A stretch of 52,139 nucleotides of DNA from the NCBI GenBank assembly GCA_008632985.1, contig QPGO01000062.1:372001-424139 (forward strand), given 5' to 3'. Of the stretch, positions 3,608-36,298 are shown in pieces. The position numbers were made by a program, and so were the translations under genes. The notes below the pieces were generated by a model. It was not told the origin of the DNA, did not search any database, and worked only from the letters and a program-made list of their open reading frames with translations. The DNA comes from Psammoneis japonica (lineage: Eukaryota). Within the stretch, counting starts at the first letter, position 1. Each line of letters opens with the position of its first letter.

Positions 3608-3663
3608 ACGGGTTCCCACCAGTGAAAGCAAAGCAATGGGCTGATGTCCGGGGTGGAGCCAAT

Positions 3664-11749: not shown

Positions 11750-12240
11750 ATCTTTTGGCTTTGCCACCGTGAAATGCTTGAGTGTCCTGACTGGCTTTCT
11801 CTTGTTGCTGGATGCACCCACATTGTTTTGGATGTCAACGAGCACTTTTGCAGCCTTGGTCAGAGCCATGACTTGAGCTGCAGTCTTTGGCTCATCTCGG
11901 ATCTTCTTGACCATGGCATCCCGTTTTGCAATGGACTCTGCCCTTGTGTCCTTGAACTTGTGCTTCAGTTCTTGTGCTGACAAACCTTCCTCCTCCAGTG
12001 GCTCTTGTGGATCTTTCTGGAGCAGCACAAACATGCTCTGGCCCTGGTCTTCCTTCTCCTTGGCTGTCGCGAGGTCTGGCATGATGGTCTCACACAAGTC
12101 CTTGCTTTGCTCTTGGTCCATTGGGCCTCCATCATCAACCAACTCCACGTCGCAATCTGACATCAGATTCCCCTGTCCTTGTTTTGGCTCTTGCACTCGG
12201 CACACCACACATTGCTGTTGTTCTTGAGGAGCATGTGGGC

Positions 12241-12635
12241 GACGCGTTCCAGCCCTAGGTGGGAGCTCGTAGCACTGACGTGTGACAACAATAATTTTTA
12301 TCATCCGTCGTATGTTTCGTACGTAGATTTCTACGTGTGATATTTAAAAAAATTGTCCAGACTCGCTGTTTTGCGAAGCCCAAGACGTTTTATATAACAA
12401 ATTTATAGAAACTATAATGCGCCAGTTACATTCTTCAATGTCTGAAGAATGTAACTGGCTAAGTAAAAAATGATGTACTCCAATCATGTGCGAGTTTGTG
12501 CGTTCGCAAAATTGCCTCATTTTCTGTTGGCGATCATTGACATTTTAATTACCGTATAATTTTACTACGGAGCTCGCACGTAGAAGTCTACGGGCCCAAT
12601 GTCACACGGATTCCCACCTGCGTCTGGAACGCGTC
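12241..12635 (-). mobile_element. 395-bp MITE copy 2 (TpA largely intact, young)
   Basis: TIR GACGCGTTCCAG at both ends. TSD GGGC (12237-12240 / 12636-12639). Inverted relative to copies 1 and 3. Confidence 0.95.
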
Positions 12636-13361
12636 GGGCAAACACCTTGGCGCACGCTGTGCCCATCCTCTTTTTCTTGGAGGTGCACTCTTTCCAGTGT
12701 GTGTCTCCAACAATCGGGTGCAGCATGCAGTCACAGAACACTGTCTGCAAAGCTGGGTTTCCCGAGTGATCTTGGAATCTTTCCACCAATGGCAAGATGC
12801 AATTGTTGTCATTGCAGCATGCACAAAGAGCTTCATTTGCGGCAGGGAAAGCAAGTGAGATGACACTTTTGGCAATCACAACAGCCACTCCTGTTTCACT
12901 CTCCATCATCACTCACTGTTGAACTTGTCCCTGCTGCGCCTGGCGTGCATTTAACCTCTTGATTGCCAGCCACTCCTGTTGCATCTTTTTTTGTTTTGTC
13001 GCAAGCCACTGGCAGCGCAGGCATGTTTTTTGCTCTGGCTCGGGCAAATCCTTTGAGCATCCTGTCCATCATCTTGGGGCCGCAATTCTGTTCATGATCT
13101 CTGCAGAGCATGCCCGTTTCCTCCATTTCCTTGTCATTGAATGTGAGTGTGACACTTGGGAACAATGTTTCCTTTGCATGTTCTCTTGCCTTCACCACAT
13201 CTTCCATCACCTTGGCCTGATCCGCCATCCAATTGGTTGAGCTTGCATGCCACTGCACAATGACCATTGTCGTCCACTTCTGCAGCAGTGTTTGTTTCCT
13301 GTGGGTGCTGAATGAAGCACACTGAAGCAATGTGATGGATGTGGTTGAGTCATGCGGATGC

Positions 13362-14677
13362 GATGTGTTTTCATCCCAGGTGAGAAACGCGCGTGCGGAG
13401 GTGAGACGTTTCGTCTGTCCCTTTTCCGTCGACGTGCTTTTTGTGCGAGCAAATCTGACTGGACTTTCCCCCGATTTTTCGTTTCTTCTTTCCACAGACA
13501 TGTTCATTTTGAAAAGCCAGCCGTCACTCTCATTGGTTGAAGGGTGTGCACAAGAAAAGCGCTGTCTCGAAAGCGGCATTTTTTGGAGTGAAACTGACAG
13601 CCATCTGCTCGTTGTTGTCATTCTGGTGCATTTGAGAGACCATTCTGCTGTTTCTTTCACCAAATCTGACTGCTTTGAAAGAATGTGTGCATTGTTCATT
13701 GCACAAAGAGCTCACACCAAAAAAGAACGGCGTTCTAACTCTGTCATTTGCATGAGAAAAATCGGGGGAACTGACTTCGCACGTGATTTTTTTGCACGAT
13801 CGGCCACTTCAAAGATCGACTGATTTGTCGACCTGTGTGGGACACTTGAGTGAATAAAACAATGGGATTGAAATGGCAGTGTCAAAGTTCAATGTGTGTC
13901 CAGTTGTCATGTGATTTGACATGCCCAAGTGGAGTTAAAGATGAAATGTTGACAAAATTTCACCGCTCAAAATGACCAGTTCTATCTTAGAATAAAATGA
14001 AATGGCTGCAACACTGAGATGTGCCAATGGCATTGTTCTACTTTACAACAATGAAACTGTCACACTTGCATCTGAGATTCTTCATCCTCACACACCCTCA
14101 AAACCGAACACACAACGATTCTCTTGTCGGCGGCGAAATCTGATGTTGTCGCGCGACCCAAAAGCATCATCCACAACGACTCAAAGTGCGGACGACACAT
14201 CACAAGAATCACAGCAACGTGTCATAGAAACATTCTTCGTTGTCAGCATCCGGTGTCAAGTGGATGGAGCAGCGCGTTGATGAGAATCCCACTTCGCAAG
14301 CTGAGGAAGAGAGAAAGAGGCATCAAAAATGTCATGAGTCAAAAGGCCACCCACAAGGCACAACAAAAAACAAAGATCAAATTTTCAACCACATCATCGC
14401 ATTGAGCGTTGTCTTGTTGACCTGTCTCGGCATTCTTGCCTTCTCAGTCACAACATCCGTTGGTGCAAGAATGGACGAGTTCATGGCGACGGCATGGCGC
14501 CATTTTCGGTTTGCGCGAATTGTGGTTTGTGGTTCGAGACATGGAAAAACACATTTTTGCTGTCATGGAGCTCGTTTTTTACTGAGATTTTTGGTGCCAA
14601 ATGCACGTCTCATGTAGAAACACGTAGAAAACCTCGTGATGTGTCCAAAAGTTTCTCACCTGGGATGAAAACACATC
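13362..14677 (-). mobile_element. ~1.3-kb non-autonomous TIR DNA transposon, copy 2 (inverted)
   Basis: Reverse complement of 10433-11749 with the same TIRs. Flanks ATGC/ATGG match at 3 of 4 positions. Confidence 0.88.
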
Positions 14678-14699
14678 ATGGCGCGCATGTGATGGTTGT

Positions 14700-17600
14700 C
14701 TTTTTCCCATCCATGTGTGTTGTTTGCTTGCCTGGACGGAGTCTTTCTCCATCATGTTTCTGTTTGTCTGTTCATCTGCGTTCAAATTTAAACAGATCCT
14801 TTCTCCAATTCAAAAATTTTCATCTTTAATTTCTGAACATGTGCGTGCCATGATGTCCAATTGTCTCTTTGTGGCCAACTCTCTAACAGTTGTTGCCACC
14901 ATGCCAAGCAACTCCCATTCAAAAATCAACCGGGTCTGCACCCAATGATTTGGTTCTCAATCCGAAACCTGTGCACCAACAAATGGTTGTGAACAAGCAC
15001 CCAATTGTTTCATCCTGCTTCTGCCGCCTTCCTTGTCTCCAATCAGACTCTTAGCTTGGCATGCCCATTTGCCACTGTCGCTGCCAATGCCCGCAAAATG
15101 CAGCCCATCCCAGTGTGTCTGCCACAACTCAATTGAGCCAGCTGTCGCAAATCACCGTTTTCATTTTCCAAGAACAGCAAATTGCTTGTCAGTTGTCTGT
15201 TTCTGCATCTGAGAATGACAAAGCACCAAGTTGCAGCACAGACTTTAATGGAGATGATGACCCACCCAGTTTCTCACCTGCGGATGACCCGGAGCCCATG
15301 CCTCCCCCGATGAAGAAGTCAAGAAGGAGGAGCAGGAGGAGGGCTGTGATGACAAAGAGCTTGATGATGATTCCTCTCATTGCGAGATGTTCCCTGGCCA
15401 TCTTGCTGTGTCCGTCTCCTCTCCTCCGGATGAGACATCTGAAGAATCAACCAACAACTTGGATCCCTTGAATGGTGAGGCACACCTGATTCACCAACCT
15501 TTTCACTGGCCAAGGAAGCTTCACTTGAGCTGATCATGCTGTGCAACAATTCCAGTGCAACACGTCAATTTTACAGTCAGTTGCTCACCCTGTTGCAATG
15601 ATTTTGCAAGAAGCGGAAATTCAATTGTTTCCAGTGTTTTGGGCGGGAATTTTTGGTGAAGAAACTCTGCAAGAAGGTTTTCCTGCCCCAGCCCGACACT
15701 CGCATCATTGGTGGACGGGGAGTCACTCACTTCCACATGCGGGACATGTTGAGAGATTTGTTTGACGTGCACAATCTCAGCATGAACAAGTCCCTGCTGT
15801 GGGCATGTTTCCACAAGTTTGTTCCTGTCAATGATTGTGATCTCAGCAAGATCATGGGAGAGGCTTTGTTGCCACGCTTGACAGTGGCAAGGATGTCAGC
15901 GGCCATGGCAGGACAAAGGTTTGCAAGGAGACAAAAAAGCTGAGTGCAAGAAGGCAAAACCAAGGTTTTGTGGGAGGAAGTGAGTTTTTCAGATGAGGAT
16001 TTCGACGTAGAATCATGTTGAAATCCTGCCGGAAAGTCGTGACAAGTCAGCAAGCTCCGCTTCACATGACCAGAGTCATGCAAGAGTGGGCCTGCAAGAC
16101 CAAGTGGCAGACAGAGCAGTGTCAAATTTTGGTGAACAGAAAGAAAATGGAGGGATTTCTGATCCCTGCCCCAAGAGTTTGAAAATCGGGAGAGTTGTGG
16201 TCACAATTTTTTGGGCGGGAGGACATGGAATGCGTGGGTGGTGTGCCAGTTGCAGATTGGGAGAGAACACTTGTGGAATCTCCCAGACAAGGGGGTTGAC
16301 AATGAAGACATGCACAAAGTTGGATGAAAAACGTGTGTTTGCACTTCCGTGAAATTGCAAAAGGGAGGTCACATCTTGACCAAGTGCAGAGACATAAATT
16401 TGTTTCATGTCAGAACATGCAACAGAAGTGATTCATGTGCAGCCATTGCAATGGTCAGAATGTGTCATTCTTCATGAATGTCATTGAATGGACGTGAGAT
16501 CTGGTGGCCGCAATGGCGGACGAAGAAAGGAGAGAGAAAGAAACACGGCAAAAAAGCCAGTTTTGGAACAACTTGACAGAGCAAGGTGATGAACTTAAGC
16601 AGCATCAGGCTGTTTGGATGGCGTGCTTGCATTCTGACATTCAGATCAGAAGAGGCGAGGTTGATTGGAGTGCAACCAAGATCAGTGTGATCAAAAAGCA
16701 TGCTTGTGGCAGCGGAAGAATTTTCCTGGCTTGCCAAAGCCAAAGTTGTTAGACTGTTCAGACAGCACACTCAAGTTCTGATGTGCAGAACAGACAAACG
16801 AGGTGGATCGTGTGTGAATCCAGATCAGCTTAGAGCTGGCTTGCTGAGGGCATCCAGATCCAGAGTGATCAGAGAGGGCATTTGCGGCAGCAGGACATGT
16901 TCCAAGCTTGCCAAAAACAAAGACACCCTCAAGCTGCTCAGATGGCATGCTCACGTTCTGACACTCAGATCAGACAAAACGAGGAGGATTGCACTGCAAT
17001 CCGATCAAGTGGCTTGCGGAGGCTGTCTGGATCCAGCATGATCAAGAGGCGTTTGCGGCGATCGGGAACATTCCGATCTGCCAAAACAAAACACCGAACT
17101 GCATTGTTCGCACTCTGATGGAATGAGTCAGAAGTGGCAAGAGCAACGCAGGCATCATGCACAATCGACTTGGCTTGTGGAATCTCTCCGGATCCGAGTC
17201 GACGGCTGACTCATCGTGGCATTGCAGGCTGATCATTGATGACCAAGCCCATCCGCTGTTCGTTGGTGCCACATGTGCAGCTTGTGGGCGATTGTGCAAG
17301 GCATGCCATTCGGCAGAAGCAATGTTTTCAGTGTTGTCGGCCCACATCGGGTCGACGCAACCGACCCCATCATCACCGGCAGTCCGCCAAATGCAATGAG
17401 GGGAACTGGGGCCGGCGGCCTCTCGTCTCGTCCATCGTCTGTCTGTCTCCCACTGCGTGCTGCTGTCACGCGGTGACTCCACCAAGAGCACGACCGCCCA
17501 CAAGGTGTCCTCTCCTTGTGCTGGGCCTGCCGTCTTGGCTCTGACAAAAATCGCCCTTTTCAATTGATGATTTCTCAACCATCATCCGATGAATGACCGC

Positions 17601-18200
17601 CGGAGTTGCTGCAAACAATTGTGTTGGTGCACGAGAATTGAGGGCAAACGCTCTGGAATCTGGAGTTGGGAATTTTTTGGCCTGAAAAAATCGAACCCAA
17701 AAAGTTCGAACTTTTGTCACCAACTTCCTCTCCAGTGTTTTTGGACATTTTTGATGACTTTGAAATGGGGGAACACTTGAGGGTCGTGCATTGGAGTTTT
17801 TGACACCCGGACCCATTTCAGTGCACGCCTTCATGTGTCTGTAGAATGCACTGAAATGTCAAAGGTCCAAATCAAATCGTGTTTGGCGTCTCAAAAACGT
17901 TCCCCCATTTCGGTTCCTCACCAATCAAAGAAATGAGGCGCAACATTCATTGTTCAACAAATGAACATGTTTCAATGATCACACCCAAAACTTGCACCTC
18001 ATCTTCCGAACAAACCGTCAGTGCTTGCCCCCCATTCTCCCCCCCCCATGGAACAAGCAGACTCTCAGCTTTCCATCGATGCATCACATGTGGGGCTGTT
18101 GTTCGTACAAAATTTCAAGTCATCATTGACATTCAACACAACAGCTGGCAGCTAGAAGTGGCAACAGGAATCATTCGAAAATGTCGCATGAGTCACAATT
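14700..18200. other. TpA-depleted relic with broken plus-strand coding-like segments; probable decayed TE
   Basis: Near-absence of TpA. An acidic stretch and fragmented ORFs lie at about 15200-17120. No motif recognised. Confidence 0.35.
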
Positions 18201-18249
18201 GATGTTTTGCACAGGGAAAAACACAAAATTGTGTGGAAATGTGCACAAT

Positions 18250-18512
18250 GTCATACGAGAGAGTGATTAGAGCTAATAACTTTTCGGGAACTGAATTGAA
18301 ATGCTATCTGATCGACGGCATTGGCCTTCACTATGTGAATCAAAATGCCGTCGATCAGACAGCATTTCAATTGATTTCCCGAGAAGTTGACATTCATATA
18401 CGGACTGATGGACAGACTCATTATAATTATTTTTGGTACTGTCCTACACAATTTCTACGTGATGACTCTGAGGACCCGAATGATTCCTATTGTAGAGCTA
18501 GAGTAGAGTACG
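18250..18512 (+). other. Coding-like exon fragment ending at a GTAAGT donor
   Basis: Normal composition and a Tyr-containing open frame (YERVIRANN...CRARVEY), followed by gtaagt at about 18513. The 5' side fades into the TpA-depleted domain. Confidence 0.35.
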
Positions 18513-21004: not shown

Positions 21005-21270
21005 CAGGCTTTCAAGATAATATAAGGATAGAATGCTGCGTAAGGTACCATAGAGTGTTCGCTCAGGACCGGCAAAACCGGTGCTCGGGAAACCAACTCG
21101 GCATTTCCCAGCCGACACAAGGGCAGTAATGCTCGAGAGAAGACGAAGGCAGCGTAATTACTTGTGAGAGATGACGAATGGCTAGAAGAGAACATGCTTG
21201 TAGCATTACACCGGTGGCAAGTGGGAACACATCAGCGTGTAGCAAAGGAGCCGTCCGTTGTTGTTGCATC

Positions 21271-21312
21271 AACAAGAGCAAGTTGGGTGCCAATGCCATT
21301 CTCGGAGTTTCG
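21271..21312 (+). pseudogene. 14-codon enolase fragment
   Basis: Translates as NKSKLGANAILGVS, a highly conserved enolase motif. The flanks are not enolase-like. Confidence 0.65.
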
Positions 21313-21753
21313 AGAAGCTTGTCTCCCCACTTATCCCAGATGAGCTCCAGCTTCAAGGTGGGACTCACAGTGGGGAACAGCAACATTTTGCATTTTTTGT
21401 TTCTCAGCGCAAAAATTCATGTGCATTTCCACATGACTTTTGACTCATTTTGCACCAGGTTTCAGTGCAGTTGTTGGGCCATGACTTGCTGAACAACTTG
21501 ACACTCTGGCATGTGCTGCAGCTCCTGCGCCCTCCAACATCTGTGGCTGAGTGCAACAACACACACAAATTTTCCACAATTTTGAGTGTGAAGAGGTGCA
21601 ACAGCACTGCAAAGTGGTCATTGTTTTGATGTCAAAGACAGGTGTGTCTGGTGTGTGACAGCCACAGCGCTTGTGAGGAGTGGAGCTCCATGGTGCAGGG
21701 ACAAATGAGGCCTAGAAATCCCTGCACCTGGAGCTTGGGCACCTCTCCACCAA

Positions 21754-21986
21754 GCTGCAGAAGGCAGCAGCAATGGACAAATGGAGCCACTTGTTGTGTG
21801 CAATGCAGCCCCTTCCTCCTTGCACTGTGGTTTCTGGCATGACCCTCTCCTGGGGCAAACTGGCAGCCCCTGGCTGCAGAAGGCAGTGGCAATGGACAAA
21901 TGGAGCCACTTGTTGTGTGCAATGCAGCCCCCTTTCTCCTTGCACCATGGTTTCTGGAATGACCGTCTCCTGGCAAACCAGCAGCT
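21754..21986. repeat. Two-unit tandem repeat with a period of about 119 bp
   Basis: gctgcagaaggcag..gcaatggacaaatggagccacttgttgtgtgcaatgcagcccc starts at 21754 and 21873. Several unit differences are TG versus CA swaps. Confidence 0.85.
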
Positions 21987-23127
21987 CCTTGTCAAGCCAG
22001 CAGTGCACCCTTTCAGCAGAGGCCAAGTTTGCACACAAATTCCAAATTTTTCAATGCTCAAAAAGAAACTGTCATTGTCAACAAAATGCACCATGCCAGA
22101 TCCATCACAACAACACTCTGATTGAAGCGGGGTTGCACACAAATCTTTGAGCAACACCTTTTTTGTGAAGGGTCAGGAATTGTGGTGCAAAAGAGCAGGG
22201 GAGAGTGTGGACAGACAGAAAGGCAGAAGTTTCAGGAGGCTGAGTCAGGAAGGATGATTGGCAGGTGGCAAGGTGAGCAGAAAAGGTGAGACCAAAGTTG
22301 AGGCGCAAGAGTTGGGTGGCCCAAGATTGAGGGGCAGAGGTGTGGCAGGAAAAAGAGCCAAAACAGTCAGGAGAGAGGTGGTGTCACCAGGTGACATTGG
22401 CTTGGGTGAGAAGATTCATTGGAGAGAGGAGGGAAAATTGGTGGGCTGCAAAGAAGGCATCAGAGTTCAAAAAGTTGGTGAGGTGATTCCAGGGGGGCTT
22501 GGGAGCAGGTGGTGGGACAGAGGAGGAGGAGTCATGAGAATGGCTGCAGAGAAAGACTTGGAAGTGGTGGTCCATGCTGCCAAGGTGGTCAAGGGCAAAA
22601 GGGAGAAGAAGAGAATGCCACATTGGATTGGGGAGTGGCCCAGATGACTCGAACGAATGTTTCAAAACTCGGAGATTTGCCGCAAGGCAGAAATCCAAAG
22701 GTGAGTGGCACAGAACGAAGCTCCCGATCGTTTGCGTTGTCGTCGACATCACCGTTTTTGTCCACACCGTCGCAAAACACATGAACACGAGGAGTGACCT
22801 ATTTATTTATCCTTACTCGATTACTGTTAAAAAATAATTAAAATAGCAACCGTTATCGTATCTATTCGTACTTTCTAAATTGAAATAGTAATTGTTAATA
22901 ATCGGTACATATAAAAGGTCAACTTAAGAATCGATATTTGAATTTCAACTGAGAAGGTATCTACCGTACGGTAGGTAGACTACCGGTAAGTATCGCTTGC
23001 TCACATTTTTCTGCGAACAATCCAAGATCGCACCATCCTGCATTCACTGAAAAGGTAAGGTATCGCTCACAATTCTGCGAAAAATCGAGATCGCAACAAC
23101 AACATCCTCCAACATCCGCTATGTACA

Positions 23128-24288
23128 ATGACGGGGTTTGCTCTTTGCTTACCTGTAAGGCTTCTCCTGGGGATGATCTTGGCGCTCAGCGATGGTGACA
23201 TGCGACAAAACAATATCCCATCAAGACGGAACAGTGGAAAGAAAGCTGTTTCTTCCATGCTCCGTAACGTTTTCGAACAGGATGACGAGAAGGATATCAA
23301 TTATGATGAAAACAACGTCTTTTGGCAGAGACTCTTAGAGAACGTTGGAATGATGAGCGCACCAGTCCCAAATTGTGGACCTCCGCCCGCTCCAACTCCT
23401 GTCCCGGCCTGCACGCCAACAACGGGAGCTTGTGTCTCGACCTTCGTGAGCCTTCAGACGGAGCTGGATGAAGCAGGTCCAAATTCGGTTGTTTCTCTCT
23501 GCGGATCAAACACAATCACTACGCCTTCCGCCGTCTCTGTTACCCAGTCTGGCATTTACTTGTGCTGCGAATCGGAGAATTGCATCATAGAGAGCAGCAC
23601 AACGTCTTCGGATCGGAATCTTGTCGTGACGGGTCAAGACTTTACAATGGCCAAGATGGACATCCGAGGAGGTAGCACTGGGGCAGGACGAGGCGGAGGA
23701 AATGTCGAAATCATCTCCAACGGTACGCATCGTATTTTAGAATGTAGATTTGAAAGCGGTCAACACCAATTCGGTGGTGGAAACTTGTTTATTCAAACAT
23801 CCGGCGGTGTTCTGGTAGATAAGAGCAGGTTCGTCAATGGTGATGCTCCAGGAGGCGGAGGTATGTACGTGTTGGATGCCTCGGATGTTGTCATTACGTC
23901 AAGTGAGTTTTTTGGCAACAACGCTACTGGCACTGGCGGAGGAGGTCTCCTGACAACCCTTTCCACACCGACATCTCCCACGGTGGGACAGCGTATATCC
24001 ATATACAAAACATCCTTTGAAGAGAACACTGCCAGTTTCGGCGGTGGGTATTTGGCGACTGCGATAGGGCAAATGCCTCGTTTGACTATTGTGGATAGTT
24101 TGTTTGAGCAGAACATCGCGTTTGAGGGGGGCGCAGCGGGAATTTTTCTGTATGATGACATTAACACTTTGGATTTATCGCTGTGCTCCAATGATGAGTC
24201 CAAGAACGTTGCAGAGAACGAGTGTGATGACTTTCTCTTCTACTTGGAGGATGACAATCGCTGTATTGCAGTCACTGAGGACTTTTGA
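23128..24288 (+). CDS. Secreted right-handed beta-helix (pectin-lyase-fold / Pmp-repeat-like) protein, 386 aa
   Basis: Hydrophobic N-terminus, Pro-rich linker CGPPPAPTPVPAC, and repeated FxxN..GGG/GGA motifs (FFGNNATGTGGGG, FEENTASFGGG, FEQNIAFEGGAAG). Confidence 0.8.
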   Translation: MTGFALCLPVRLLLGMILALSDGDMRQNNIPSRRNSGKKAVSSMLRNVFEQDDEKDINYDENNVFWQRLLENVGMMSAPVPNCGPPPAPTPVPACTPTTGACVSTFVSLQTELDEAGPNSVVSLCGSNTITTPSAVSVTQSGIYLCCESENCIIESSTTSSDRNLVVTGQDFTMAKMDIRGGSTGAGRGGGNVEIISNGTHRILECRFESGQHQFGGGNLFIQTSGGVLVDKSRFVNGDAPGGGGMYVLDASDVVITSSEFFGNNATGTGGGGLLTTLSTPTSPTVGQRISIYKTSFEENTASFGGGYLATAIGQMPRLTIVDSLFEQNIAFEGGAAGIFLYDDINTLDLSLCSNDESKNVAENECDDFLFYLEDDNRCIAVTEDF

Positions 24289-24652
24289 GAGATTACCGCG
24301 GTTGATTGCAAAGGTCAACTACTGTTGCATGGTGAAACGGAGAACGAGAAAATGAATAAACACAATGCAACAACAATGCTAGGCATGTTATACATAAAAA
24401 CACAATACATGAGCAAAGATCTCGTCTTCTTGTATCCTCACACTGCATCCATACAACATTTCACTGGCCCTGGCATTCGAAGTTCACCGTTGATCGATCA
24501 TGTCATTTAACATCGGGCTAGAGTTCCTACGTTTGCTGCTGACGAGAGAGACATCATCCGACCGCTCAAACGTGCTTCTTGGTAAATTCAAAGCAGACCC
24601 AAAGTCAAGCCTCTCAAGAGGGAGTTACTGACCGGCCTTCTCTTTCTCCAAT

Positions 24653-24657
<5 letters not shown>

Positions 24658-24694
<37 letters not shown>
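24658..24694. repeat. (GA)n microsatellite of about 18 units
   Basis: Perfect GA run. The paralogous site near 37792 has only tagagag. Confidence 0.95.
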
Positions 24695-24696
<2 letters not shown>

Positions 24697-24889
24697 CTGT
24701 GCTCAGCATCCTTTAGAAAGTTCATCTGCAACAGCTGGCTTGTCCTTTTGCAAGACCTTTTTCATGCAGGTCTGAAAGCACATCTGACCAGGCCTGTCAG
24801 GCAGTTGCTGCATGCAGTTTGAAAATGTCTGTCTCTAGAATGGCTGCTGCATTCAGAGGGTGCACTTGCACCTGCTGCCACAATGACAT

Positions 24890-24970
24890 TCAATGCAACT
24901 GAGAACAACAGGGCAGCTTCTTGACATGATGCTTCCTTGCTTTCAAATCTCCTTGCTCTTGTTGTTGCAG
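24890..24970 (-). pseudogene. Hypermutated 3' remnant of the 37981-38430 gene
   Basis: QQQEQGDLKARKHHVKKLPCCSQLH* versus the intact RRQERGDAKTKKRHVKKLPCNSQLY*. Confidence 0.85.
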
Positions 24971-27029
24971 CCATTTTGTGTGTGAATTTTTTTGCACCAA
25001 AGTGGCTTGGTTCTTTGTTTTGCCATGCGGATCCTTCTTTTCCCTGTCTTCTTGTTGCATGACATTGAAACATCCACCTTGCTTTGGGGCGCATCTTGTT
25101 GCAGAAAATGGGATCCCTCCATCCATCCATGTGCTCGTTTGCACATGGAAACTGCACACATGTCAGTTCTGCCAACACCAACAGGGTGGAGACATTTTTT
25201 CTTTCTTGTTCTTGGTGTGACTTGATGTGTTGATGCTGCACACACAAGTCTTGTTGTGTTGCTTTTTTCAATGAAAGAAACACAAAAAAAAGAGAAAGGC
25301 TTGGTGGTTTTTGCTGCTGCAGACCTGATGACCTTAACAAGCTTTGCTCAATGTGACCATCTGTTGCACAAAACAGGCCAAGTTGTTGTTGGGGAACAAT
25401 GCCACACATGCATTGTTGCTGCTTTGCTTGAGAGTGCTGCAGCACCAGCTGCAATGGGTTGCTTGCTGCATGTCCCAAAAAGCCAACAGTTTTTAGAATT
25501 GATGCAACAGGAGAAAAATGTGCTGTGACTTTGTTGGCAGAGCAAAACACAATGCTTGGTTGCCCACTCAGTTTGACAAATTGTGCCACACAGCAGTGCA
25601 TGCCACAAATGCTTTTGGACAAGAATGTGGTGGTGACACACATTGTGCATGTTGAACAATGGGAGCAAAACCCAGTCTGAGCTCCAAACAAGAAGTCAAA
25701 AAGAATCTGGTGCTGCCACCAGAAGAAAGAGTCATCCTGCAGACTGCAGAACAAGCAGCAACAGAGAAATGAGTCTCAAGCAGAGCATGCAGGGTGTCAG
25801 TTTGACTTTTTCAATGCTGGAGTTGAAGAACAACAAAGGTGACAGGGACAACAAACAGTGCGGCACACTTCAGCAGAAAGCAAAACAGACAAGTGCCACA
25901 CCATCAGTTTGTAGCTGGATGTCAACAAATGTGCTGCAGCACAGTCGAGAGGTTTGTTGCCAAGTGACTTGAGTCAAAGCTTCTTGTTGACACATCACAA
26001 AGTTGCTCTGAATCTTCTGTCCTCCTCAGCACTGTGCATTTTCAGAATGGGAGGAGAAAATCCATTTTGACTTTGTTTTGGCAGAGCAAAACCTCATGTG
26101 ATGCTCTTGTGCCACCTCAGTTTCACTTGTTGTGCAACCGCTGTTGGCTGAGAACATTGTGGGTTGATCAGCGGGAACAAACCCCAACCCAGAGTGCCAA
26201 AAAAAAGAATCTGGTGCAAACAAGCAGCAGCAGAGTGCTAAAAAAAGGGTCAAGCCCAGAGAGTGCACCATGTCAGTTGTTTGACTTTTCCCACACCAGA
26301 GCTGTTGATTGAACAGTGTTTGGCAGCAGTGCTGTCAATTGAGTGGCAAATGGCAGGGGGACAACAACAGTGCTGTTTGCTTGGCACAGAGCAAAACAGA
26401 ACACAAGTGGCTGCTGCCATTGGCCTGGTTGCCTTGGACACCACAACTCTCTTGCTCTGCACTCTTTTCTCTGTGTTGATGTCAGTGGACCCTGTCAAAG
26501 CAACAATGCAAAGAGCCTCAAAATGCATGCACAGGGCTTGCAACAAGAACATCCAACAGCAACATTGTGAAGAATTTTGTCCAGCAGCTCAAGTTGCAAG
26601 TTCTCATCCATTGCTCAGACTCCTCTGTCCAAGCTGTTCTCATTGTCCAAACTGTTGTCATTGGATGAACCACAGTTTGATTTTTGATGAGATTTGGTTC
26701 TTAACACCCTCAACACACAAGCAGCAAAGCTGCAAAGTTCTGGAGCTGCCTTTGATGTTGATGATGCAGCAACGCTGGGTGGCCAATCTTGAAGCAAGCA
26801 ATTGGTGCCATCTGTCTTGTGGTGGAAGCAAATGGCTCAAATTGGTGTTGCTGTGAAGCATCAACATGTGCCATTTCCCAACTCAAGCTTTGTTCACACA
26901 GGCACAACATGCAGCCAAAGCAGCTTGAGGAGTTTCAAGCTCATGCACTGGCCTTTGTCCACAGGCAGATGCAGCCATGCTCCTCTTCACATTCTTTGTC
27001 AATCAAGTTTGCTTGAATGGGGGGCTGAT

Positions 27030-27720
27030 GTGTGGCTGTGCTGCGGGGTGTTGAGGTTGTTTTGTGCGCACTTTGTGAGTGCTGTGGGCACACCAGGGCT
27101 GCCCAAGGCAGCCAGCAGCACATTTGTTGAGCTTGGAAATGACCTGTTTTTGCAAAATGCTGGGATGGAGTGAGGAAAGACTCCAGCTGACCCTGCCAAC
27201 ATGCCACCACACACAGGCTTGCAAAAGCAGCAACAAAGAGAAGCACTGTGCTGATGACAAGCTTGCGCCATCAGTGCAAAAGACAAGCCTCCTGGAGGGG
27301 CTGCTGCAATTGCTTGTTTTGGTTGCTTTTTTGGGTGGCTCTTTTGGTTTCATTGTGCTGCTTCTGGCTTGTGCACATCCATTTTCCATGACACCCTTCA
27401 ACCCAACAAACTCACTGTTGGGCTCCATTTTTTAATGACCTGTGGTGCCTGGCAGTTTTCTAGATTGTGGAGAGCATCCATGATTTGCAGTTGCCACAAA
27501 GCTCACCTCTCTGAGTGTGGCTTGAAGTTTCAAGCTTGCAAGCTCACTTGGATTTGTGGCTGCATGTGATTTGTGCCACATTGCAAAAAATAAAAGGCCA
27601 CAAGACCTGTGCAAAACAAATTTCCACATCAACTTTGGAGCCCCCCCCCAAGGCAATGCTTGCGTGGCCAAGGGAGAAATTTGAGGATGCACAGCTGTGG
27701 ACTTAAAATGAAGCAAATGC
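27030..27720. repeat. Old degenerate dispersed repeat (copy 2 of about 150-800)
   Basis: Same collinear blocks as 150-800, in the same orientation. Confidence 0.7.
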
Positions 27721-28105
27721 AACACCAATGGAGCAACCATGACCAAAACTCACTCACAAAACCAGTGCTTGAGCAACGCACCCAGTCAAGGCACTCAGAG
27801 CTCAAAGTTGGATTGTCCGCCGTGTCAGGCAGCTTCCATGACATCTGCTTGTGACTCACTCTGACACCCCCCTGTCATTGGCAAGCCAACTCAGATGCCA
27901 GATGCGTGCGGCAATTGTTGCAGACATTGTCACCACTCTTGCAGGTTGCTCTTGCATCCCCCTGCACTCCCACTCATGGTTGTTTTTTGCTTTTTTCTTC
28001 AGTGGCAGATGCAGGGAGTCTGGGTCACACTGCGCCAGTTCTGGCATCTTCTCTCTGGCCCCTGCCCTCTGCTGTGCTGGCAACAACAAACCTGAGAGGA
28101 AAGAC

Positions 28106-28301
28106 TGACAGAATGCCAAAGGTCAACAGTGACAGAGGCATGAAAGACTCCCTGAAGCACCAGGACTGTGATGACACGAGTGCCAGTAGATGAGAAAGTG
28201 AGAAGCAGATCTCAGAGAGATCTGCTCGTCTGTCTAAATGGTCTGGCCATCATCCGCATCCAGTCTGTCCATCGTACGACATGCAGACAGACAGGCTGAC
28301 A
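28106..28301 (-). repeat. 3' LTR of Copia B (196 bp)
   Basis: TG...CA termini. Direct repeat of 35015-35212. Confidence 0.95.
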
Positions 28302-31300
28302 CCCTCCCCTGATCTGCAATGTCTCAACATAGAGAATGGGGCAGATCAAACCAAAGAACAGGGATGATGTAAGGAAACAGAGAGACCAGACACAGGACAC
28401 GACAAGTGTCCATGCCCAATGCGCCATCAAACAAGGGGGCAATGTGCAGCAGGGAGGCCACCGCGGAAAAAACATCAACAGCAGCGTCCCATCATGCGTC
28501 GAGCGTGGCGGGCATGTGGCACCCAGCCAAGGGCCTTGGCAAGGTCATTGCCAGGGTTGACAATGCCAGGGACATGTCTTGTGACAATCTTGCCCACTTC
28601 CTTCCATTTTTGGATCGCAAAAAACTGGACCTCAACGTGACGGGATCGCTCGGTCGGGATCAAATGATTGACGATCTTGATTGCCGATTCGTTGTCAATG
28701 TGCAATGGGGTTGGCTCCGTCTGAGAGAAGCCTGGTTCATGTGGGATGTGACGAAGGTAAAGGACATGCTTGGCAGTGGTGCCAGCAGCGCAGAATTCAG
28801 CTTCCGCAGAACTCGCAGCAGTCGCCGATTGGGTCTTGCATCAAAAGGATGTGGCAGCACCGGCTAACATGCAAGCACAGCCAGTCACAGAGCGACGGTT
28901 ACGGAGGTCATTGCCACATGCAGCATCCAAAAAGGCAACAAGTTGATGATCATGTTCTGGGAAAGGGAACGATGGTAGGGTCGGGTCCGGAGTGAGACGT
29001 TCGAAGGGGCAGGCGGGCAGTCTTGAGTCTCGGGTGGGCTTCTTGCAGTTCAGTTCCCAATGCTTGGTGCGTCAAAGGCACTTGCATGCTCCCTTGAGTG
29101 CATCACAGTGAACCAAAGCAGGACAGGCAGAGAACTTGGAGAGAGCAGTGATGGCATGTCCAACATCCAATCGACAGACAACATGCGCACACAACAATTC
29201 ACCAAGTGGAGTGCGGCACCCAAAACCAGCAGCTTGTTGTAACTCTGCATGTTCCGGGGTTCCTTCAGCTGGACCAACAGCAGTGCACAGTTCACGAAAA
29301 GAGTCAACCGGGATTGGCGCAGCCTTGCAGTCATCGTCGAGTTCCTCTTCCGTCGGTGTCGACCATCCATGCGAGGTGCAAACCCGATCAACATGGCTGT
29401 GAACAGCAATGCCAACAGAGTCATCATGTTGATGAACATCCACACCATTGAACTCTTCAATCACGCCAAGACACTTGAAAGGCAGGGAGGTTTCCGATTC
29501 CAATTCAAGAGCTTTGCCAATCTTGTCGTGTGTCTTGATCGCAAGGGACTCTTCAGGACACGCAAGGGAGAAGTCATCAACCTGATGGAGGAGCAAGATC
29601 TTGTGTCCCTCAAAAGCAGCAGAACAGATGCATTTGTCATGAGCGGTGTTGCGAAAAAGTGGATTCACATCGGACAAAATGCCGTTGATGTGCATCTCCC
29701 AGAGCACGCTGGCTTCTGGGTGTCCCTGAAGTGCATGTTGCATCGGAAGCACCATGGTCCCATCCAAATCAATGCCAAACCGAGCCTTGTGCCAAGTCGC
29801 GCATGCTTCGTCAACAGCAACACAGACGGGGTGTGACGGTCGTGGAGAGTGTGCACAGGCATCATGAGCATCACCACCAAACACAGGGTAGCTCACAGTC
29901 GCAGCAAGGGCAAAAAACATGCGTTGGACAGGTTGTTCCACACAAGAGGAGTGGGTTGAGTGAAGACAATGGAGGATTGACGCAGCACAAGGAGATCCAT
30001 CGCAGCATTGTCAAGATCGTCGCGTGCCATCATGCTTGAGATCATGTTGCCAATGTGGACAAAGGACTGTGGCATCCTTTGGACATTCAATCGGTGCACC
30101 AAACATCCCCAACTCATGGAATTGGTCAAGTTGTTTGAATTCACCCACATGCCATTCGGGCCAGGTGCCCAGCTTCTTGAGACAATGGCGAGTGAAAGCA
30201 CCTGACGCTTGTTCCTCCGGAGCAATGGCATGAGATGAAATGGTGCAGATGTTGACCACACCATTGTCGCAGTCGACATGGATCAACGGAGGGATGTCAT
30301 CATCGTCCACATCGGAAAAATCAACATCAGGGTGACGGATGGCAGCAACAGCATGCATGTCAGCATTGGCAATTTCCGGGACATGTTCGTCATCAGGGTC
30401 AGGAGTCGGTGCACAGACATTGTGTTCCATCAGGGCACGTTGTAGAGCCTGGGAGTCCAGTTGACGTTCCGGCGCAAACTCGATTTCAAAGTGAGTCTTG
30501 CCAGAATCACAGACTTGTCGAAAACGTTTGATGGCCTCCTCTGCCACAAAGACAGGGTGATCATCAATCAATGCGACACACGCACCCTTGATCTTGTTGC
30601 AGGTTGCCTTCAAAGAACAGAAAAGACGCGCAGCAGGAGAACCATGCTTGACATCAGAGACAAACACTTGCTGATGGAGATCATCCGCAGTCAATGAAAT
30701 TCCAAATGTCGGATCAGCAAACGGCCCCTTCATCGTATGCGCAATGGTCTTGGCAAAAGGATTCCCATGAAAGTGGAGCTCGTCCATCGTAGATTCTTCA
30801 GTCTTGGCAGGTGAAGCCTTGCCATCTTGAGCATGCTCCAAGTGAACCACATTCGGGGGAAGAGAGTCGTGGGGTAGATCATTCATGCCCTCATCATGAT
30901 GAATGTGCTTGGCAAGCTTGACACGCGACGTCTCGGTGTCACACCAAAGGATGTTCTTGGTGGTGTCTGGAAGATGGCCCAAGAAAACACCCTTGCAAGA
31001 GACAGACCGAAATTTTGCTGGGCGGTGATTCGACGCACGCACCCACACTTGGCAACCAAACATGCGAAAGTTCTTGAAATCATCCTTTCGACCAGCTCAG
31101 CAAGAGCAATCGGAGCAGCAGGTTGTCCGCGGGATGGCACAGCGTTGTTGATTCGAGTGAAATGATGAAAAGCACAGGGCCAGAATTTTGTGGGCAAATT
31201 GGCACCAATGAGCATCGCCCGGATGGCATCAGCAACAGTCAAATGACTGCGTTCCACTGGGCCACTCTGGTTTGAAGCATCTTTTCCCGCAGGACAAATT

Positions 31301-33514
31301 GCGCGGTGAAAGTCATCCTCGAAAAGTCACCGAACCTCTGGGTTTTGATGCAATTCACCTCCTTGATCCACAAACACACATTTGTCTGGACATTTTGGTG
31401 AGTGCTCTTCCAGAAAGTGGCGAAGCCAATTCAGAGGGGTTGCCTTGGACGGTGGAGATGCTTCGTTTTATGATCGTAGATGGTGATCCAACAAGTCTCG
31501 CCATTCAATCCAACACAGTCTTTGGTGCGCTCCGAGTTCTTGGACCGCAGGCCAGAGAAAGAAAAATCAACCGCAAGACCTTGGCAGGGTTGGGTGGCAG
31601 CAAGAGCAGTGTTCGGACCAGCAGGTTCCTTTGTCTGCTTTGCTTGTGTGCATGTGGGACAAGTGTCGAGAGGAGAAGTTCCGTGGGCAAACTTGGGGAC
31701 ACCGTGTTCATGGGCATGACAAAGGCAGTGATCACTCGGATGACCAAGTCGCTGATGCCATGAAAGGCATTCCGTGTCAGCCTTGAGAGATTGGACAGGG
31801 ACATTCTTCTCTGCATGCTCTTCAAAAGGAACATCTTGATGCACTCGGGGGATCAACTTGCATTCAGCACGAAGAGCGTCATGTTGGCAGGTGTGACATG
31901 TTTCAATCATGTGCACAGAGACTGCTTCACACTCATCAGCAAAGGAAGGGTCACTGGTCTTGAGGCGCTCAACAGATGCACCCAATTCATCGTTAGATTC
32001 TGGGAGGATGAGAGGGTGAGCAAAGCATTTGCCATTGATCAATTTCCCATGAATGATGATGTCCTGATTCTTGTGCAATCGGTGTCGTGCAACAAACTTG
32101 CAGGTGCCGAGATCATGGAACTTGAGGACACAATCAACATTGTGGTCTGCACGACGAGGGCCATTTTGACGAAGGAGGAGTCGCTCATCAACCAACGTAG
32201 ATTGGATCTGTGGGTGGCAGCAGGCACGAACCTCAACACATCCATCAGAGTTCTCTGCAGGGATGCGAAGACATCCGAACCCAACTGGGACAGCTTGATG
32301 GCCAAGGGCCGGATTGACAGCAAGGGGACAGGGATGGGACGGAGTGAATTCTTGGTGTCGGTGGAGAAGGTCACGGTCGCCTGCACATGCAACATCAGCA
32401 CCAGCATCCAACTGAGCACAACACTCATTCGGAGCAAAATTTGCCCCATTGACAGAACAAGTTGAGCGCAACAGTTCCGGCTCAGGAGAGTGACTCGCTT
32501 GGTGTGGATCGATCGGAGTGACACGAACAGAATTGATGGCAGCAAAACCATCTTCAACAGCCATGTCATTGCAGGTGAGGTCAATGTGTTCCTCAAAATC
32601 CGGTGTTTCTGGGTCTTCCCTCCCCTGTTCCAAAGGATCCGGAGCACAAGCAGCATCGACGGTGTCTTCCATGGGAGCAGGGTCATCATCTGGTAACTTG
32701 CTGGCATCAAATGACACCTTCGTGGCAGTGGAAGGGGTGGCATCCATGTCAATCTGTGAAGAAAGAGGCACTTCAGTGGCAGATGACGAGACGGTTGGTC
32801 CCTCTTTCAAGGTCATCCCGCTGACATCAGTCTTGTCTCGGTGAGGAGAAAAACGGGCAGTGTCGGAGATCCGAAACTAGCTGCGACGGCCCGATTGAAA
32901 ATCCGAGGGCGGAGCACCAGATCTGGGCGGATTTTCAGGGTTTTCATGATGAGGTGGGAGCAGACCTTGGGATCCTTGGAACTCAGAAGCACGCACAGCT
33001 GCTTCCCTCTTTAAGAATTGACAAAAATGGATGTGAAATCCCTTGATGTGTGGGTTGTTCTTCAGGGCCGGACAGTCATCAAACAAATGCTCTCCGGAGC
33101 AGACAAGACATGGTTTCTTGGAGGCTTCATTCGGAGCAACTTTCAGTTTGCAAACTGAAGCCAAACATGCATGGTGCAGAAGTCGATCTTCGTCCGTAGA
33201 AGGGATCTCGAGTTCATGCAATTCGTCACAAAAAGCATCAAAGGTGTCCAGAGGTGGAGATTCCGCACCAGTGTCTTCAGTGGTGGAGTCATCGACTGGT
33301 TCAGGAAGAGATGTCTCAGGGATCTGGAGAGCACTGACATTGACAGCCGTGCGTCGCGCATCCTCAGCTGCTTGATTCCATGTGCGGCGGGGATTGGATT
33401 GCGTCGCACGAGTGGCAAAGGATGGACTGTCCGGTTGGCAGAGGAAATCAGAGAGAGTCTCGACAATCTGTGCATCTGTGCACTTCTTCTGCACAGCTGG
33501 AGACTTCCGTTCAT

Positions 33515-33909
33515 GACGCGTTCCAGACGTAGGTGGGAATCCGTGTGACATTGGGCCCGCAGACTTCTACGTGCGAGCTCCGTAGTAAAATTATACGGTA
33601 ATTAAAATGTCAATGATCGCCAACAGAAAATGAGGCAATTTTGCGAACGCACAAACTCGCACATGATTGAAGTACATCATTTTTTACTTAGCCAGTTACA
33701 TTCTTCAGACATTGAAGAATGTAACTGGCGCATTATTGTTTCTATAAATTTGTTATATAAAACGTCTGGGGCTTCGCAAAACAGCGAGTCTGGACAATTT
33801 TTTTTAAATATCACACGTAGAAATCTACGTACGAAACATACGACGGATGATAAAATTATTGTTGTCACACGTCAGTGCTACGAGCTCCCACCTAGGGCTG
33901 GAACGCGTC
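33515..33909 (+). mobile_element. 395-bp MITE copy 3 (TpA largely intact, young), inserted in Copia B gag
   Basis: TIRs GACGCGTTCCAG...CTGGAACGCGTC. TSD TCAT (33511-33514 / 33910-33913). Confidence 0.95.
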
Positions 33910-35002
33910 TCATCTCTGGTGGCACGAGATGAGAACTTGGAGTGCTTGGTGTTCTTGACAAAGACAGTCATCTCCCGTGGATCGTTCAACGTAGAGTCCG
34001 CATCAAAAATGCAGGCATGCAGCTGTGGGAAATCATTGAAGATCATGTGGCAGTCTGTCAATGATCGATTGCCTTGGACAGGATGGGAGTCAACCAGTCC
34101 AGCAGCATCGTGGTCGAAAGCAGGATGATTCTCACAGACAATCTGCTTGAGAGCCTTGTGTCCATTGCCGCAGCATGATGCAACAATCCGATGACATTTG
34201 CTGTTCTTGGGGAACACACCCGACTTGGATGAGATTTTGTGGAGAGAGCTCTGAGCTTCCTTGCAGTGGACGCACATGCATTGAGGCAAGTCATCATCCT
34301 TGCCGTTTCCGATCTCGAAACCTTTCACACCACCGTGGTCCTCAGCAAAACACCACAATGGATGCATGTGGCATCCTGAATCAAAGGCATGACGTTGGAA
34401 ATTTTGGCACCATGCTCGCATCCCAGGGGGAGAGTCGTCGTGACATGCAGGAGGTTCCCTGAACAACATTTTCTGGTCAGGAGTCAAGCTCATGATGAAA
34501 AGGGTGCCATCGTTGAGGATGATGCAATTGGATGCATCAACACAGTGACGGAATCCATGGTTGCAAGGGACGAGGGAGCTCTGAAGAGCAACTTTTCCGT
34601 TCGTGGATGAAGTGATCACGAAGCATGTCCGCAAAATCTTTCTTGGGTTGCACGCGCTCTGGATCGTCAAAGAACGGGTCGAGATCAGTTGTGGAGTCCG
34701 CACAAATCGCACCCAGGCAGCCATGTAGATGTGGCATCGTTGTGTGTGCCTCGAACTCACAGCAGATCTCTGCAATGGACGGAAGAGTGGGCTTTGTGGG
34801 GTCGGAAGACACCATGGTTTTAGTTGGTGGAGCCATTTTTGGTCATGCACGCGCAGAAATCTGGTGTGTTTCTACGGTCATGAAAAATGCCGGGAAAGCG
34901 AGACAAAAAGTTGTCAGATCAGACGATGAGGCTCGCTCGATCGGCTCACAAAAGAAATGAATCGAAACAGAAAGCTTGGCGCACAGGTCTGTGGCACAGC
35001 AC

Positions 35003-35014
35003 GCGGCCATGACC
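35003..35014 (-). other. Probable primer-binding site of Copia B
   Basis: GGTCATGGCCGC directly follows the 5' LTR. It resembles the GGTTATGG-type PBS of copia elements primed by an internal tRNA-iMet fragment, with TA->CA. Confidence 0.55.
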
Positions 35015-35212
35015 TGACAGAATGCCGAAGGTCAATGGTGACAGAGGCATGAAAGACTCCCTGAAGTGCCAGGACTGTGATGACACGAGCACCAGCAGAT
35101 GAGAAAGTGAGAAGCAGATCTCAGAGAGATCTGCTCTCGTCTGTCTGAATGGTCCAGCCATCATCCACATCCAGTCTGTCCATCATGCGACATGCAGACA
35201 GACAGGCTGACA
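35015..35212 (-). repeat. 5' LTR of Copia B (198 bp)
   Basis: Direct repeat of 28106-28301 with a 2-bp indel. Followed by TSD AAGAC. Confidence 0.95.
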
Positions 35213-36298
35213 AAGACAAGAAGAAAGAGAAGAGGGAAAAGAGGGGGGGGGGGGGGATTTTTGGCCACTGCAGATGCTGCCTTTTGCTGCACTGCTGGAA
35301 GGTTCCAACACACACACACACAGAAGCTCTGTGGCACATGAGGAGCAAGTCACCCACGATGTCGTCAAAGGATTCACCCTGTCAGTGGGTTGGGGGGGGG
35401 GACCAGAGTGCATCACAAACTGGAAGGAAAGTGTTTTTTGCAGGATGCCGCAGCACACACGGCAGCAGTGGTGGCCGTTGATGAGCCCTCCTTCCCCCCC
35501 ACGACCAACGCTTCCCACAACCAGGAGCAGCCTGCCCGCCCCCCCCTCCCCCCATGATCTTTTGCTCCATGTGACTCTGTGAGGCCACCAGCACAATTGT
35601 CCCTTGCAAGACTGACCAAGCCAAAAGGGCAGGGCCTCAAGTTGTCAAAGGATTTTGACCACAGAGAGTGGGCTGAGTCAGATGAAGGAATGATGATGAG
35701 CACTTCAAACAACAAGGCAAGAATTTTTGGTGGCATTTTGTGCAGCACTGCAAGGTGTGGTGCACACCACCATCCAAAAAGATTTTGTTGGTTGTGATGC
35801 ACTTCTTGGATGACACAACTGCCCACACACACAACACTTTGGAAGTGTGCTCCTGTTGTGGTGGTGGTGGTGTGTGTGCTCTTGCTGCTGTCTCCTGCTC
35901 TGCGCCACTTTTTTCTCACCCCACAAACCTGAGAGAGGATTTCCCAACATGAACTCACACGTATGCACCACTTTCTCACTGCATGTGGTTTCCAAGTGCA
36001 TGAGCTTACCAACTGAGAAGGAAGAAGGAGGGATGCCCCCGCCTCCATCCCTCGTCGTTTACTGCAACCATCCTCGCTCTAAAGTGGTGCGAGGATCAAT
36101 GGTCATGACTGTATGATTATCAACCGTTAATATAATTATTAATTCTTTATTAAATTGAAATAGAAATTGCTAATATACGGTACATATAAAATGTGTACTT
36201 AACAACGATATTTTGAATTTCAACTGAAAAGGTATCGCTTGCTCACATTTTTCTGCGAACAATCCAGATCGCAACATCACATGCAACATTCCGCTACA

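Follow-up and report, generated by a model that had tools for sequence, protein, structure and literature searches.

What sets the limit of a mutated region in chromosomal DNA? The question is raised by a 52,139-nucleotide stretch of the diatom Psammoneis japonica (contig QPGO01000062.1, positions 372,001 to 424,139 of the forward strand; the window hereafter), which carries two copies of a 2.1-kb segment made up of a beta-helix gene and its flanks. In copy 1, the dinucleotides TpA and CpG are largely retained up to a (GA)n microsatellite in the 3′ flank and nearly absent immediately beyond it, while copy 2 is unconverted throughout. The edge most likely represents the limit of a regional mutation domain, chromatin-type in nature, beside an active gene, a reading to which a probability of roughly 0.6 is assigned. 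The features that carry the comparison are the following.

22876-24982, forward strand: copy 1 of the duplicated segment, comprising promoter region, beta-helix open reading frame (ORF) and 3′ flank; repeat families D3, D5, D7, D8, D10, D11 and D13.
36151-38073, forward strand: copy 2 of the duplicated segment, the internal reference, defined by the same repeat, word-chain and alignment evidence.
24654-24694, forward strand: (AG)21 microsatellite (Tandem Repeats Finder score 75), the only long microsatellite of the window.
24695-24975, forward strand: converted part of copy 1, with 2 TpA and 0 CpG remaining.
37797-38065, forward strand: unconverted counterpart in copy 2, with 14 TpA and 18 CpG at aligned positions.

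The two copies were paired by a colinear chain of purine/pyrimidine-coded words and by pairwise alignment. Left of the tract (22876-24657), 1632 aligned bases are 90.8% identical, and the losses of both dinucleotides are symmetric between the copies: copy 1 keeps 49 of the 66 TpA of copy 2 (10 read TG or CA) and 64 of its 85 CpG (14 TG/CA), and copy 2 keeps 49 of the 63 TpA of copy 1 (10 TG/CA) and 64 of its 86 CpG (15 TG/CA). Right of the tract (24695-24975; 260 aligned bases, 78.5% identity), the change runs in one direction. A single one of the 14 copy-2 TpA survives in copy 1, while 12 have become TG or CA (six each) and one AA; none of the 18 CpG survives, with 16 having become TG or CA (eight each), one TA and one CC. 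In the reverse direction, not one TpA or CpG of copy 1 reads TG or CA in copy 2. Fisher tests of kept versus converted sites, left against right, give p = 4.6e-7 for TpA and p = 3.2e-10 for CpG, and still p = 0.001 and p = 0.0002, respectively, when the left side is confined to its non-coding flank (24290-24657). The contrast between an intact left and a converted right side is real, directional and far beyond chance, and it affects copy 1 only, as a preliminary description made from the letters of this stretch had claimed. The strings quoted there do differ as described, with TA, TA, CG and TACGTA in copy 2 (around 37883) standing as TG, CA, TG and TGCATG in copy 1 (around 24790), and the further TA to TG change near 37986 in copy 2 and 24891 in copy 1 is likewise present.

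The edge can be placed closely. The final TpA kept lies at 24653-24654, the final CpG kept at 24633-24634, and the earliest converted TpA at 24707-24708, such that the edge falls between 24654 and 24707, a 53-base interval of which the tract occupies 41 bases. Two further statements of the preliminary description are thereby borne out, namely that the edge lies within tens of bases and that the tract is expanded solely in copy 1, copy 2 having just three AG units at the same position. Conversion does not build up gradually; it has reached its full level by the first informative site, which makes the edge a step rather than a gradient. At this edge, the TpA and CpG limits lie within one shared interval of at most 75 bases, a coincidence that points to a determinant common to both processes rather than to one enzyme.

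Both sides of the edge are of the same age. Mismatches other than TpA or CpG to TG/CA amount to 25 of 260 positions (9.6%) on the right and to 36 of 324 (11.1%) in the left non-coding flank; this similar divergence means that both parts descend from the same duplication. Since the left non-coding flank evolves as fast at these untargeted sites, selection is not what holds its TpA and CpG. Homology between the copies extends about 285 bases beyond the edge into the converted state, and the edge is therefore neither an insertion junction nor a join between sequences of different origin. As the edge lies inside duplicated sequence, the mutation post-dates the duplication, whichever copy is the parent. 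Past 24982 and 38073, respectively, a comparison of 22700-28500 with 35950-42500 by purine/pyrimidine-coded 24-base words, which are insensitive to these TpA and CpG transitions, found no homology except three isolated matches.

These counts bear on two accounts that dispense with a regional process acting on DNA, namely ADAR-type A-to-I editing of RNA followed by reverse transcription, and purifying selection on the left side; together, they are very improbable. Editing of element RNA would be expected to leave the sense-strand bias seen in the Copia reverse transcriptase of this window, but the converted flank lies outside any retroelement and is colinear with its paralog. Moreover, neither strand dominates among its changes (TpA to TG at 6-7 sites and to CA at 6; CpG to TG and to CA at 8-9 sites each), and RNA editing leaves the loss of CpG unexplained. 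Selection is contradicted by the untargeted divergence of the left non-coding flank, which at 11.1% against 9.6% is no lower than that of the converted side.

Could the edge instead be a product of sequencing or assembly? Contigs built from exact 31-base words of a public run (X1) at a depth of about 60, possibly from the assembly's own sample and in that case not fully independent of it, show no other letter over 24003-24649 and two differences over 24705-26325, both CpG/TpG (25467 and 25946). One CpA/TpA difference between the window and these contigs lies in a depleted domain, at 22518; such differences are no more than hints of a raised de novo mutation rate. Some long-read base callers misread methylated bases in the direction required here, and modified bases in silent DNA, with A read as G and C as T, could in that manner mimic conversion. 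This explanation is nevertheless exceedingly unlikely, given that (i) the X1 contigs, with the depth and possible sample overlap just stated, depart from the window at just 2 places over 24705-28155, (ii) two copies of a transposon-like element inside depleted domains retain all of their TpA while a third is converted, and (iii) converted copies differ from one another, with CA in one where the other has TG.

Somewhat less remote, though still improbable, is a chimera: ectopic recombination in the genome or a misjoin in the assembly would have fused, at the microsatellite, the unconverted left part of one paralogous locus to the converted right part of another. Microsatellites are prone to both kinds of join, and no X1 contig spans 24650-24704. 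On the other hand, the sequence on either side of the tract is colinear with that around the three-unit proto-tract of copy 2, and the two sides are similar in their untargeted divergence from copy 2 (9.6% versus 11.1%). Depth on the two sides (60 and 64) corresponds to a single copy, and over copy 2 (37-53) it shows no increase, a comparison that covers only paralogs at least 90% alike. A recombinant would, in any case, still require a converted paralog made by the same process.

The converted flank forms the rim of a much larger region. In 1-kb windows, the observed/expected ratio of TpA falls to 0.02-0.18 in extensive parts of the window, compared with 0.39-0.77 in the rest, and those of TpG and CpA climb to 1.4-2.2 where TpA is low. 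Two-state segmentation on TA/(TA+TG+CA) yields four depleted domains with seven main edges; the domains, together with the single-copy stretch that adjoins the edge, are listed below.

5-18252, unstranded: TpA-depleted domain with two inverted Copia copies and further inverted repeats.
21243-22795, unstranded: TpA-depleted domain left of copy 1, with 2 TpA among 325 sites.
24723-36001, unstranded: TpA-depleted domain right of the edge (24707-36001 when counted from the earliest converted TpA), with 33 TpA among 1892 TA/TG/CA sites, then 5 among 439.
38894-42923, unstranded: TpA- and CpG-depleted domain right of copy 2, with 12 TpA among 971 sites.
24649-28175, unstranded: single-copy DNA of no recognisable family, poor in CpG and TpA, with 18 CpG among 839 CG/TG/CA sites.

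Across their 34,407 bases, the depleted domains contain 137 TpA, compared with 765 in the other 17,632, which corresponds to 0.40% versus 4.37% of dinucleotides (about 11-fold), with TG plus CA at 20.5% versus 14.1%. They make up about two thirds of the window and cover Copia elements as well as single-copy DNA of no recognisable family, while the normal stretches are gene islands; copy 2 sits in one of these, the TpA-normal segment 36007-38890 of the same segmentation. The domain right of the edge includes one 364-base TpA-normal island, which is a miniature inverted-repeat transposable element (MITE). CpG depletion is narrower, being found between Copia elements (e.g., 24649-28175 and 38873-42787), with the Copia elements themselves spared. 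The TpA that survive in depleted domains do so unevenly: CTAA/TTAG and TTAA persist at about 0.30 of their normal density, ATAC, ATAG and ATAA at 0.03-0.07, and ATAT not at all (0 versus 64 in normal DNA), which suggests a flanking-base preference of the mutator.

Contig depth over the 3.2 kb beside the edge is 62-82, compared with 52-75 over the gene, i.e., that of single-copy DNA. This modifies two parts of the preliminary description. Its claim that host sequence can be hit holds insofar as non-transposon DNA has been converted; what was converted, however, is the non-coding 3′ flank, about 366 bases past the stop codon, and not gene sequence. The idea of engulfment by a repeat domain fares less well, as the converted stretch lies at the rim of its domain and the adjoining 3.2 kb, being single copy by depth, is not a repeat domain. 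Since the converted sequence is not a transposon, the process acts in place and is not confined by the limits of repeats.

Coding potential in such DNA has to be read with care: TGA is the only stop codon left in depleted domains, so that ORFs are long by composition, and gene and repeat finders are misled. Among the ORFs of at least 110 codons in 24649-28175, nine of the 13 listed were scanned and all fell below the Pfam cut-off, as did the 337-codon ORF 24762-25775; none of 20 ORFs from doubly depleted stretches and the copy-2 flank reached it.

Conversion in place is also evident in repeats elsewhere in the window, the relevant copies being as follows.

33515-33908, forward strand: MITE-like element of about 395 bases inserted in Copia, TpA intact (29 TpA); from alignment.
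12241-12634, reverse strand: second MITE copy, TpA intact, 98.7% identical to the 33515 copy; from alignment.
3213-3606, forward strand: third MITE copy, converted; from alignment.
28105-35212, reverse strand: Copia-type retrotransposon with terminal direct repeats (Pfam RVT_2, gag_pre-integrs and SH3_retrovirus; repeats D6 and D9).

In the third MITE copy, 23 of 29 TpA are converted (12 to TG, 11 to CA) and CpG is hardly changed (24 versus 26 in an intact copy), while the two intact copies, both inside depleted domains, keep 29-30 TpA. Intact copies in TpA-free surroundings suggest an episodic mutator or, alternatively, very recent insertion of these copies. The element has 12-base terminal inverted repeats and a summed contig depth of about 80,000 (single-copy DNA: about 60), from which its copy number in the genome is probably of the order of a thousand; an exact 26-base word from it had no match in metagenome contigs. 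The Copia element at 28105-35212 (contig depth 1400-5000) is depleted in TpA and has kept its CpG. Five repeat pairs in depleted domains, one of them the terminal repeats of a single Copia element and hence identical at insertion, show mismatches mostly in pyrimidine-purine dinucleotides, including 10, 9, 10, 14 and 4 sites, respectively, with CA in one copy and TG in the other. Such sites are expected from separate conversions of one ancestral TpA (or CpG) in the two copies.

Relatives of the Copia elements serve as an outgroup. Of 49 related loci from metagenome contigs, 46 have an ordinary TpA content, mostly 0.6-1.0. At 19 alignment columns with Tyr in these 46 outgroups, the window Copia reverse transcriptase has Cys 10 times, Tyr 6 times, and His, Trp and Phe once each, while it keeps Phe in 14/14, Trp in 8/8 and His in 11/12 columns; its YVDD motif has become CVDD. 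The ordinary composition of the outgroups and the changes at the Tyr columns indicate that the family is not inherently free of TpA and that the window copies are dead. TpA changes in the reverse transcriptase (6702-8369, forward strand, and 1636-3381, reverse strand) are strongly sense-biased (Tyr to Cys 10, to His 1), unlike the balance seen in the MITE (12:11) and the gene flank (6-7:6); part of the Copia signal may have arisen by another route, for instance through changes to the non-template strand during transcription or to element RNA.

The window also contains large inverted duplications of converted elements, 802-3213/6546-9372 and 10432-11749/13362-14678, with arms 93-95% complementary. 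Most TpA conversions are common to both arms, which shows that converted DNA kept being duplicated. TpA-depleted stretches occur in four of the 49 metagenome Copia contigs, L035 (1-1943; whole-contig TpA observed/expected 0.13), L033 (696-1501), L023 and L004 (2594-2862), and metagenome chimeras aside, the same signature may be present in other environmental relatives. These four were not counted as further edges because metagenome assembly can fuse converted and unconverted copies.

The position of the edges can be related to the genes that they face, foremost the two beta-helix ORFs.

23059-24288, forward strand: beta-helix ORF of copy 1, 409 codons from stop to stop (Pfam PF13229, E = 7e-7).
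36203-37464, forward strand: beta-helix ORF of copy 2, from Pfam scan, translation and alignment with copy 1.

Translation of the copy-1 ORF gives a signal-peptide-like start at an ATG near 23128, and its relatives among assembled public reads are 40-64% identical. About 700 bases of 3′ flank belong to the duplicated segment, including a conserved AATAAA about 70 bases past the stop codon and about 300 bases before the edge. The copy-2 gene differs from copy 1 by a one-base deletion in a G run at about 37297, which places its last 55 or so codons in a different frame (ORF 37297-37464) and marks either a pseudogene or a homopolymer error in the assembly. The dN/dS ratio of the two ORFs (0.64) is unusable, as the tail of copy 2 is out of frame. 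In the copy-2 flank (37966-38683), 11 differences, mainly transversions, are listed between an X1 contig and the window over about 720 bases, while an X2 contig from the same sample matches the window over 37971-38738 with no other letter; the differences are probably allelic variation.

Other long ORFs of the window include a Tic110 homologue, an ankyrin-TIR protein, a glycosyltransferase and Copia-type retrotransposon genes. The best named relatives of the Tic110 homologue are from Nitzschia, Phaeodactylum, Seminavis, Pseudo-nitzschia and Cylindrotheca (53-60% identity), all diatoms, and the window is taken to be nuclear DNA. An 866-codon ORF (42557-45157) with a weak match to thrombospondin type 3 repeats contains a 144-base tandem array (43514-44493; 6.7 copies, 68% matches).

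Three 5′ edges of gene islands fall 295-331 bases upstream of a start codon or ORF start (22797 versus ATG 23128, 36004 versus 36299, and 18253 versus ORF start 18584), which amounts to a nearly constant length of protected promoter; the 3′ margins range between about 370 and about 1400 bases. The TpA and CpG limits, which coincide at the (AG)21 edge, are offset by up to about 150 bases elsewhere (22645 versus 22795; 42787 versus 42923). At these two edges, both facing gene 5′ ends, a strip of about 140-150 bases (22650-22797 and 42790-42925) is free of TpA and rich in CpG, an offset of about one nucleosome length.

Does the tract itself stop the mutation? The preliminary description proposed that it, or else the 3′ end of the transcribed gene, acts as a barrier, and a triplex-prone, nucleosome-disfavouring or GAGA-type-factor-bound (GA)n run that halts spread from the right would fit a 41-base tract that nearly fills the edge interval and is expanded only in the converted copy. 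The edge at 36004 lies 11 bases from a 19-base purine run, and two of the seven main edges are within 60 bases of one of the eight purine or pyrimidine runs of at least 18 bases, where a rough post hoc estimate expects about 0.13. However, a microsatellite is present at one of the seven edges only, five have no such run (the longest within 60 bases being 6-10 bases) and those without a tract are equally sharp. Conversely, six of the eight long runs lie inside domains away from any edge, among them a 40-base purine run (35218-35257), although the latter abuts the end of the Copia element, so that its two sides may have mutated separately. Thus, across seven edges in one window, no insulator of the GAGA or purine-tract type was found to recur at edges and to be absent inside domains. 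We conclude that an edge neither requires a GA tract nor follows from the presence of one, with a contributing role of the tract possible at the (AG)21 edge; as the sole barrier, the tract is an unlikely explanation and is not established here.

Under the favoured reading of a chromatin-type mutation domain, the course of events was as follows. After the 2.1-kb duplication, a regional process acted in place on copy 1, turning TpA into TpG or CpA; this is an A:T to G:C change at TpA, such as an adenine deaminase working on both DNA strands would produce. In the same stretch, CpG became TpG or CpA, most simply by deamination of methylated cytosine. Both processes came near saturation right of (AG)21, and neither was active left of the tract. 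The direction, the action in place, the step and the equal age of the two sides are shown by the comparison; the enzyme, the chromatin basis and what fixes the edge are what we infer. The two processes would be restricted to silent, non-genic chromatin, and the edge would mark how far protection extends from the active gene next to it. The GA tract would then be the place where this limit fell, or would have helped to fix it, without being a barrier by itself.

Several points weigh against this reading. (i) Its chromatin basis is itself something that we infer. (ii) The edge falls at the only long microsatellite of the window, and the chance of its landing in this 53-base interval is about 2.5% by a post hoc estimate over the 2.1-kb segment, so that the tract may still have played a causal part. 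(iii) Measured against background divergence, CpG on the right side (0 of 18 kept) has been lost much faster than in the Copia pairs, which suggests more than slow decay. (iv) The X1 contigs end at 24649 and resume at 24705, X2 and X3 have no coverage there, and continuity across the tract is provided by the assembly alone.

The duplicated flank constitutes a natural experiment with its own control, in that the paralog gives the unmutated state base by base. It documents erasure of TpA in place on chromosomal DNA, bound neither to the limits of a transposon nor to repetition, that stops as a step. These three properties (in-place, repeat-independent and step-like) are the points that separate a chromatin-guided DNA mutator from editing during retrotransposition. 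A bolder and more tentative proposal, which we consider somewhat less probable than not to hold in full, is that diatoms run a TpA-specific DNA mutator of the chlorarachniophyte type at genome-shaping strength. It would irreversibly strip TpA from all DNA outside active-gene chromatin, transposon-derived or otherwise. The edges would be sub-nucleosome steps, located some 300 bases ahead of start codons and at long GA tracts or similar features. In that case, the mutator would be old and common to the SAR group (stramenopiles, alveolates and Rhizaria), and past borders of chromatin and heterochromatin could be read from DNA sequence alone. The process, which could explain the killing of transposons in diatoms, would thereby extend from one 2026 preprint on a rhizarian alga to a group of major primary producers.

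Among known systems, the repeat-induced point mutation (RIP) of ascomycete fungi changes CpA to TpA, lowers G+C and needs duplicated sequence. It resembles the present case in being an irreversible, dinucleotide-specific transition mutagenesis of transposons in place that can leak into single-copy neighbours. Unlike RIP, which creates TpA, the process in the window removes it. Moreover, RIP depends on duplications, whereas the 3.2 kb beside the edge is single copy and just one of the two duplicates was changed. RIP was rejected on account of its opposite direction and because only copy 1 is altered, with no reverse TG/CA on the right side.

ADAR-type hyper-editing prefers a 5′ U. The window shares the A to G change beside a 5′ T/U, and the sense bias of the Copia reverse transcriptase would fit as well; in contrast, the flank is genomic DNA that was changed in place on both strands, with no RNA or reverse-transcription step.

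Decay of methylated CpG agrees with the loss of 16/18 CpG to TpG or CpA in non-genic DNA, balanced between strands (8+8). In another diatom, Phaeodactylum, long terminal repeat retrotransposons are cytosine-methylated, with CpG as the context according to preliminary bisulfite data (PMC2806351). Methylated-CpG decay does not account for the loss of TpA, and Copia and the converted MITE lose TpA while keeping CpG. It explains the CpG part only.

The closest likeness is with the chlorarachniophyte Bigelowiella natans, and literature searches found no report of TpA depletion or erasure in diatoms; two papers on diatom transposons make no mention of hypermutation, deamination, dinucleotides or RIP. 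According to the main text of a preprint (Mettrop et al., bioRxiv 10.64898/2026.01.13.699255), mutation in two integrated viral regions is accelerated about 1000-fold in mutation-accumulation lines of this alga. Almost all of the changes are A to G or T to C; every one falls on TpA, and only some lines show them (10.64898/2026.01.13.699255). The genome contains 124 clusters of 1-kb windows depleted in TpA and enriched in CpA and TpG, and an ADAT2-like deaminase is proposed (10.64898/2026.01.13.699255). The Discussion of the same preprint compares the process with RIP and discusses ADAR-type editing (10.64898/2026.01.13.699255).

Several traits described in that text recur here: (i) changes fall on TpA and yield TpG or CpA according to strand; (ii) the affected regions are delimited, the window passing from 0 to 12/14 converted within 53 bases with flanking DNA unaffected; (iii) long-term loss of TpA with a gain of CpA and TpG is enriched in reverse-transcriptase and transposase sequences; (iv) a single-copy region can be a target; and (v) activity appears episodic, being confined to some lines there and leaving young MITE copies untouched here. 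The regions described there are silent or foreign, while the targets in the window are Copia and MITE sequences and also single-copy DNA and the 3′ flank of a gene. The differences are equally clear. The host here is a diatom, and TpA has been lost almost to saturation from about two thirds of the window, with DNA of no recognisable family and a gene flank among the affected sequence. The mutation rate was measured in B. natans, whereas the signature in the window is known from sequence comparison alone. The main text of the preprint makes no mention of CpG, border or boundary; in the window, CpG is lost in some domains and edges are placed to tens of bases. As far as sequence and that main text allow the comparison, the signature is the same as in B. 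natans, the diatom host, the accompanying loss of CpG and the finely placed edges being among the differences.

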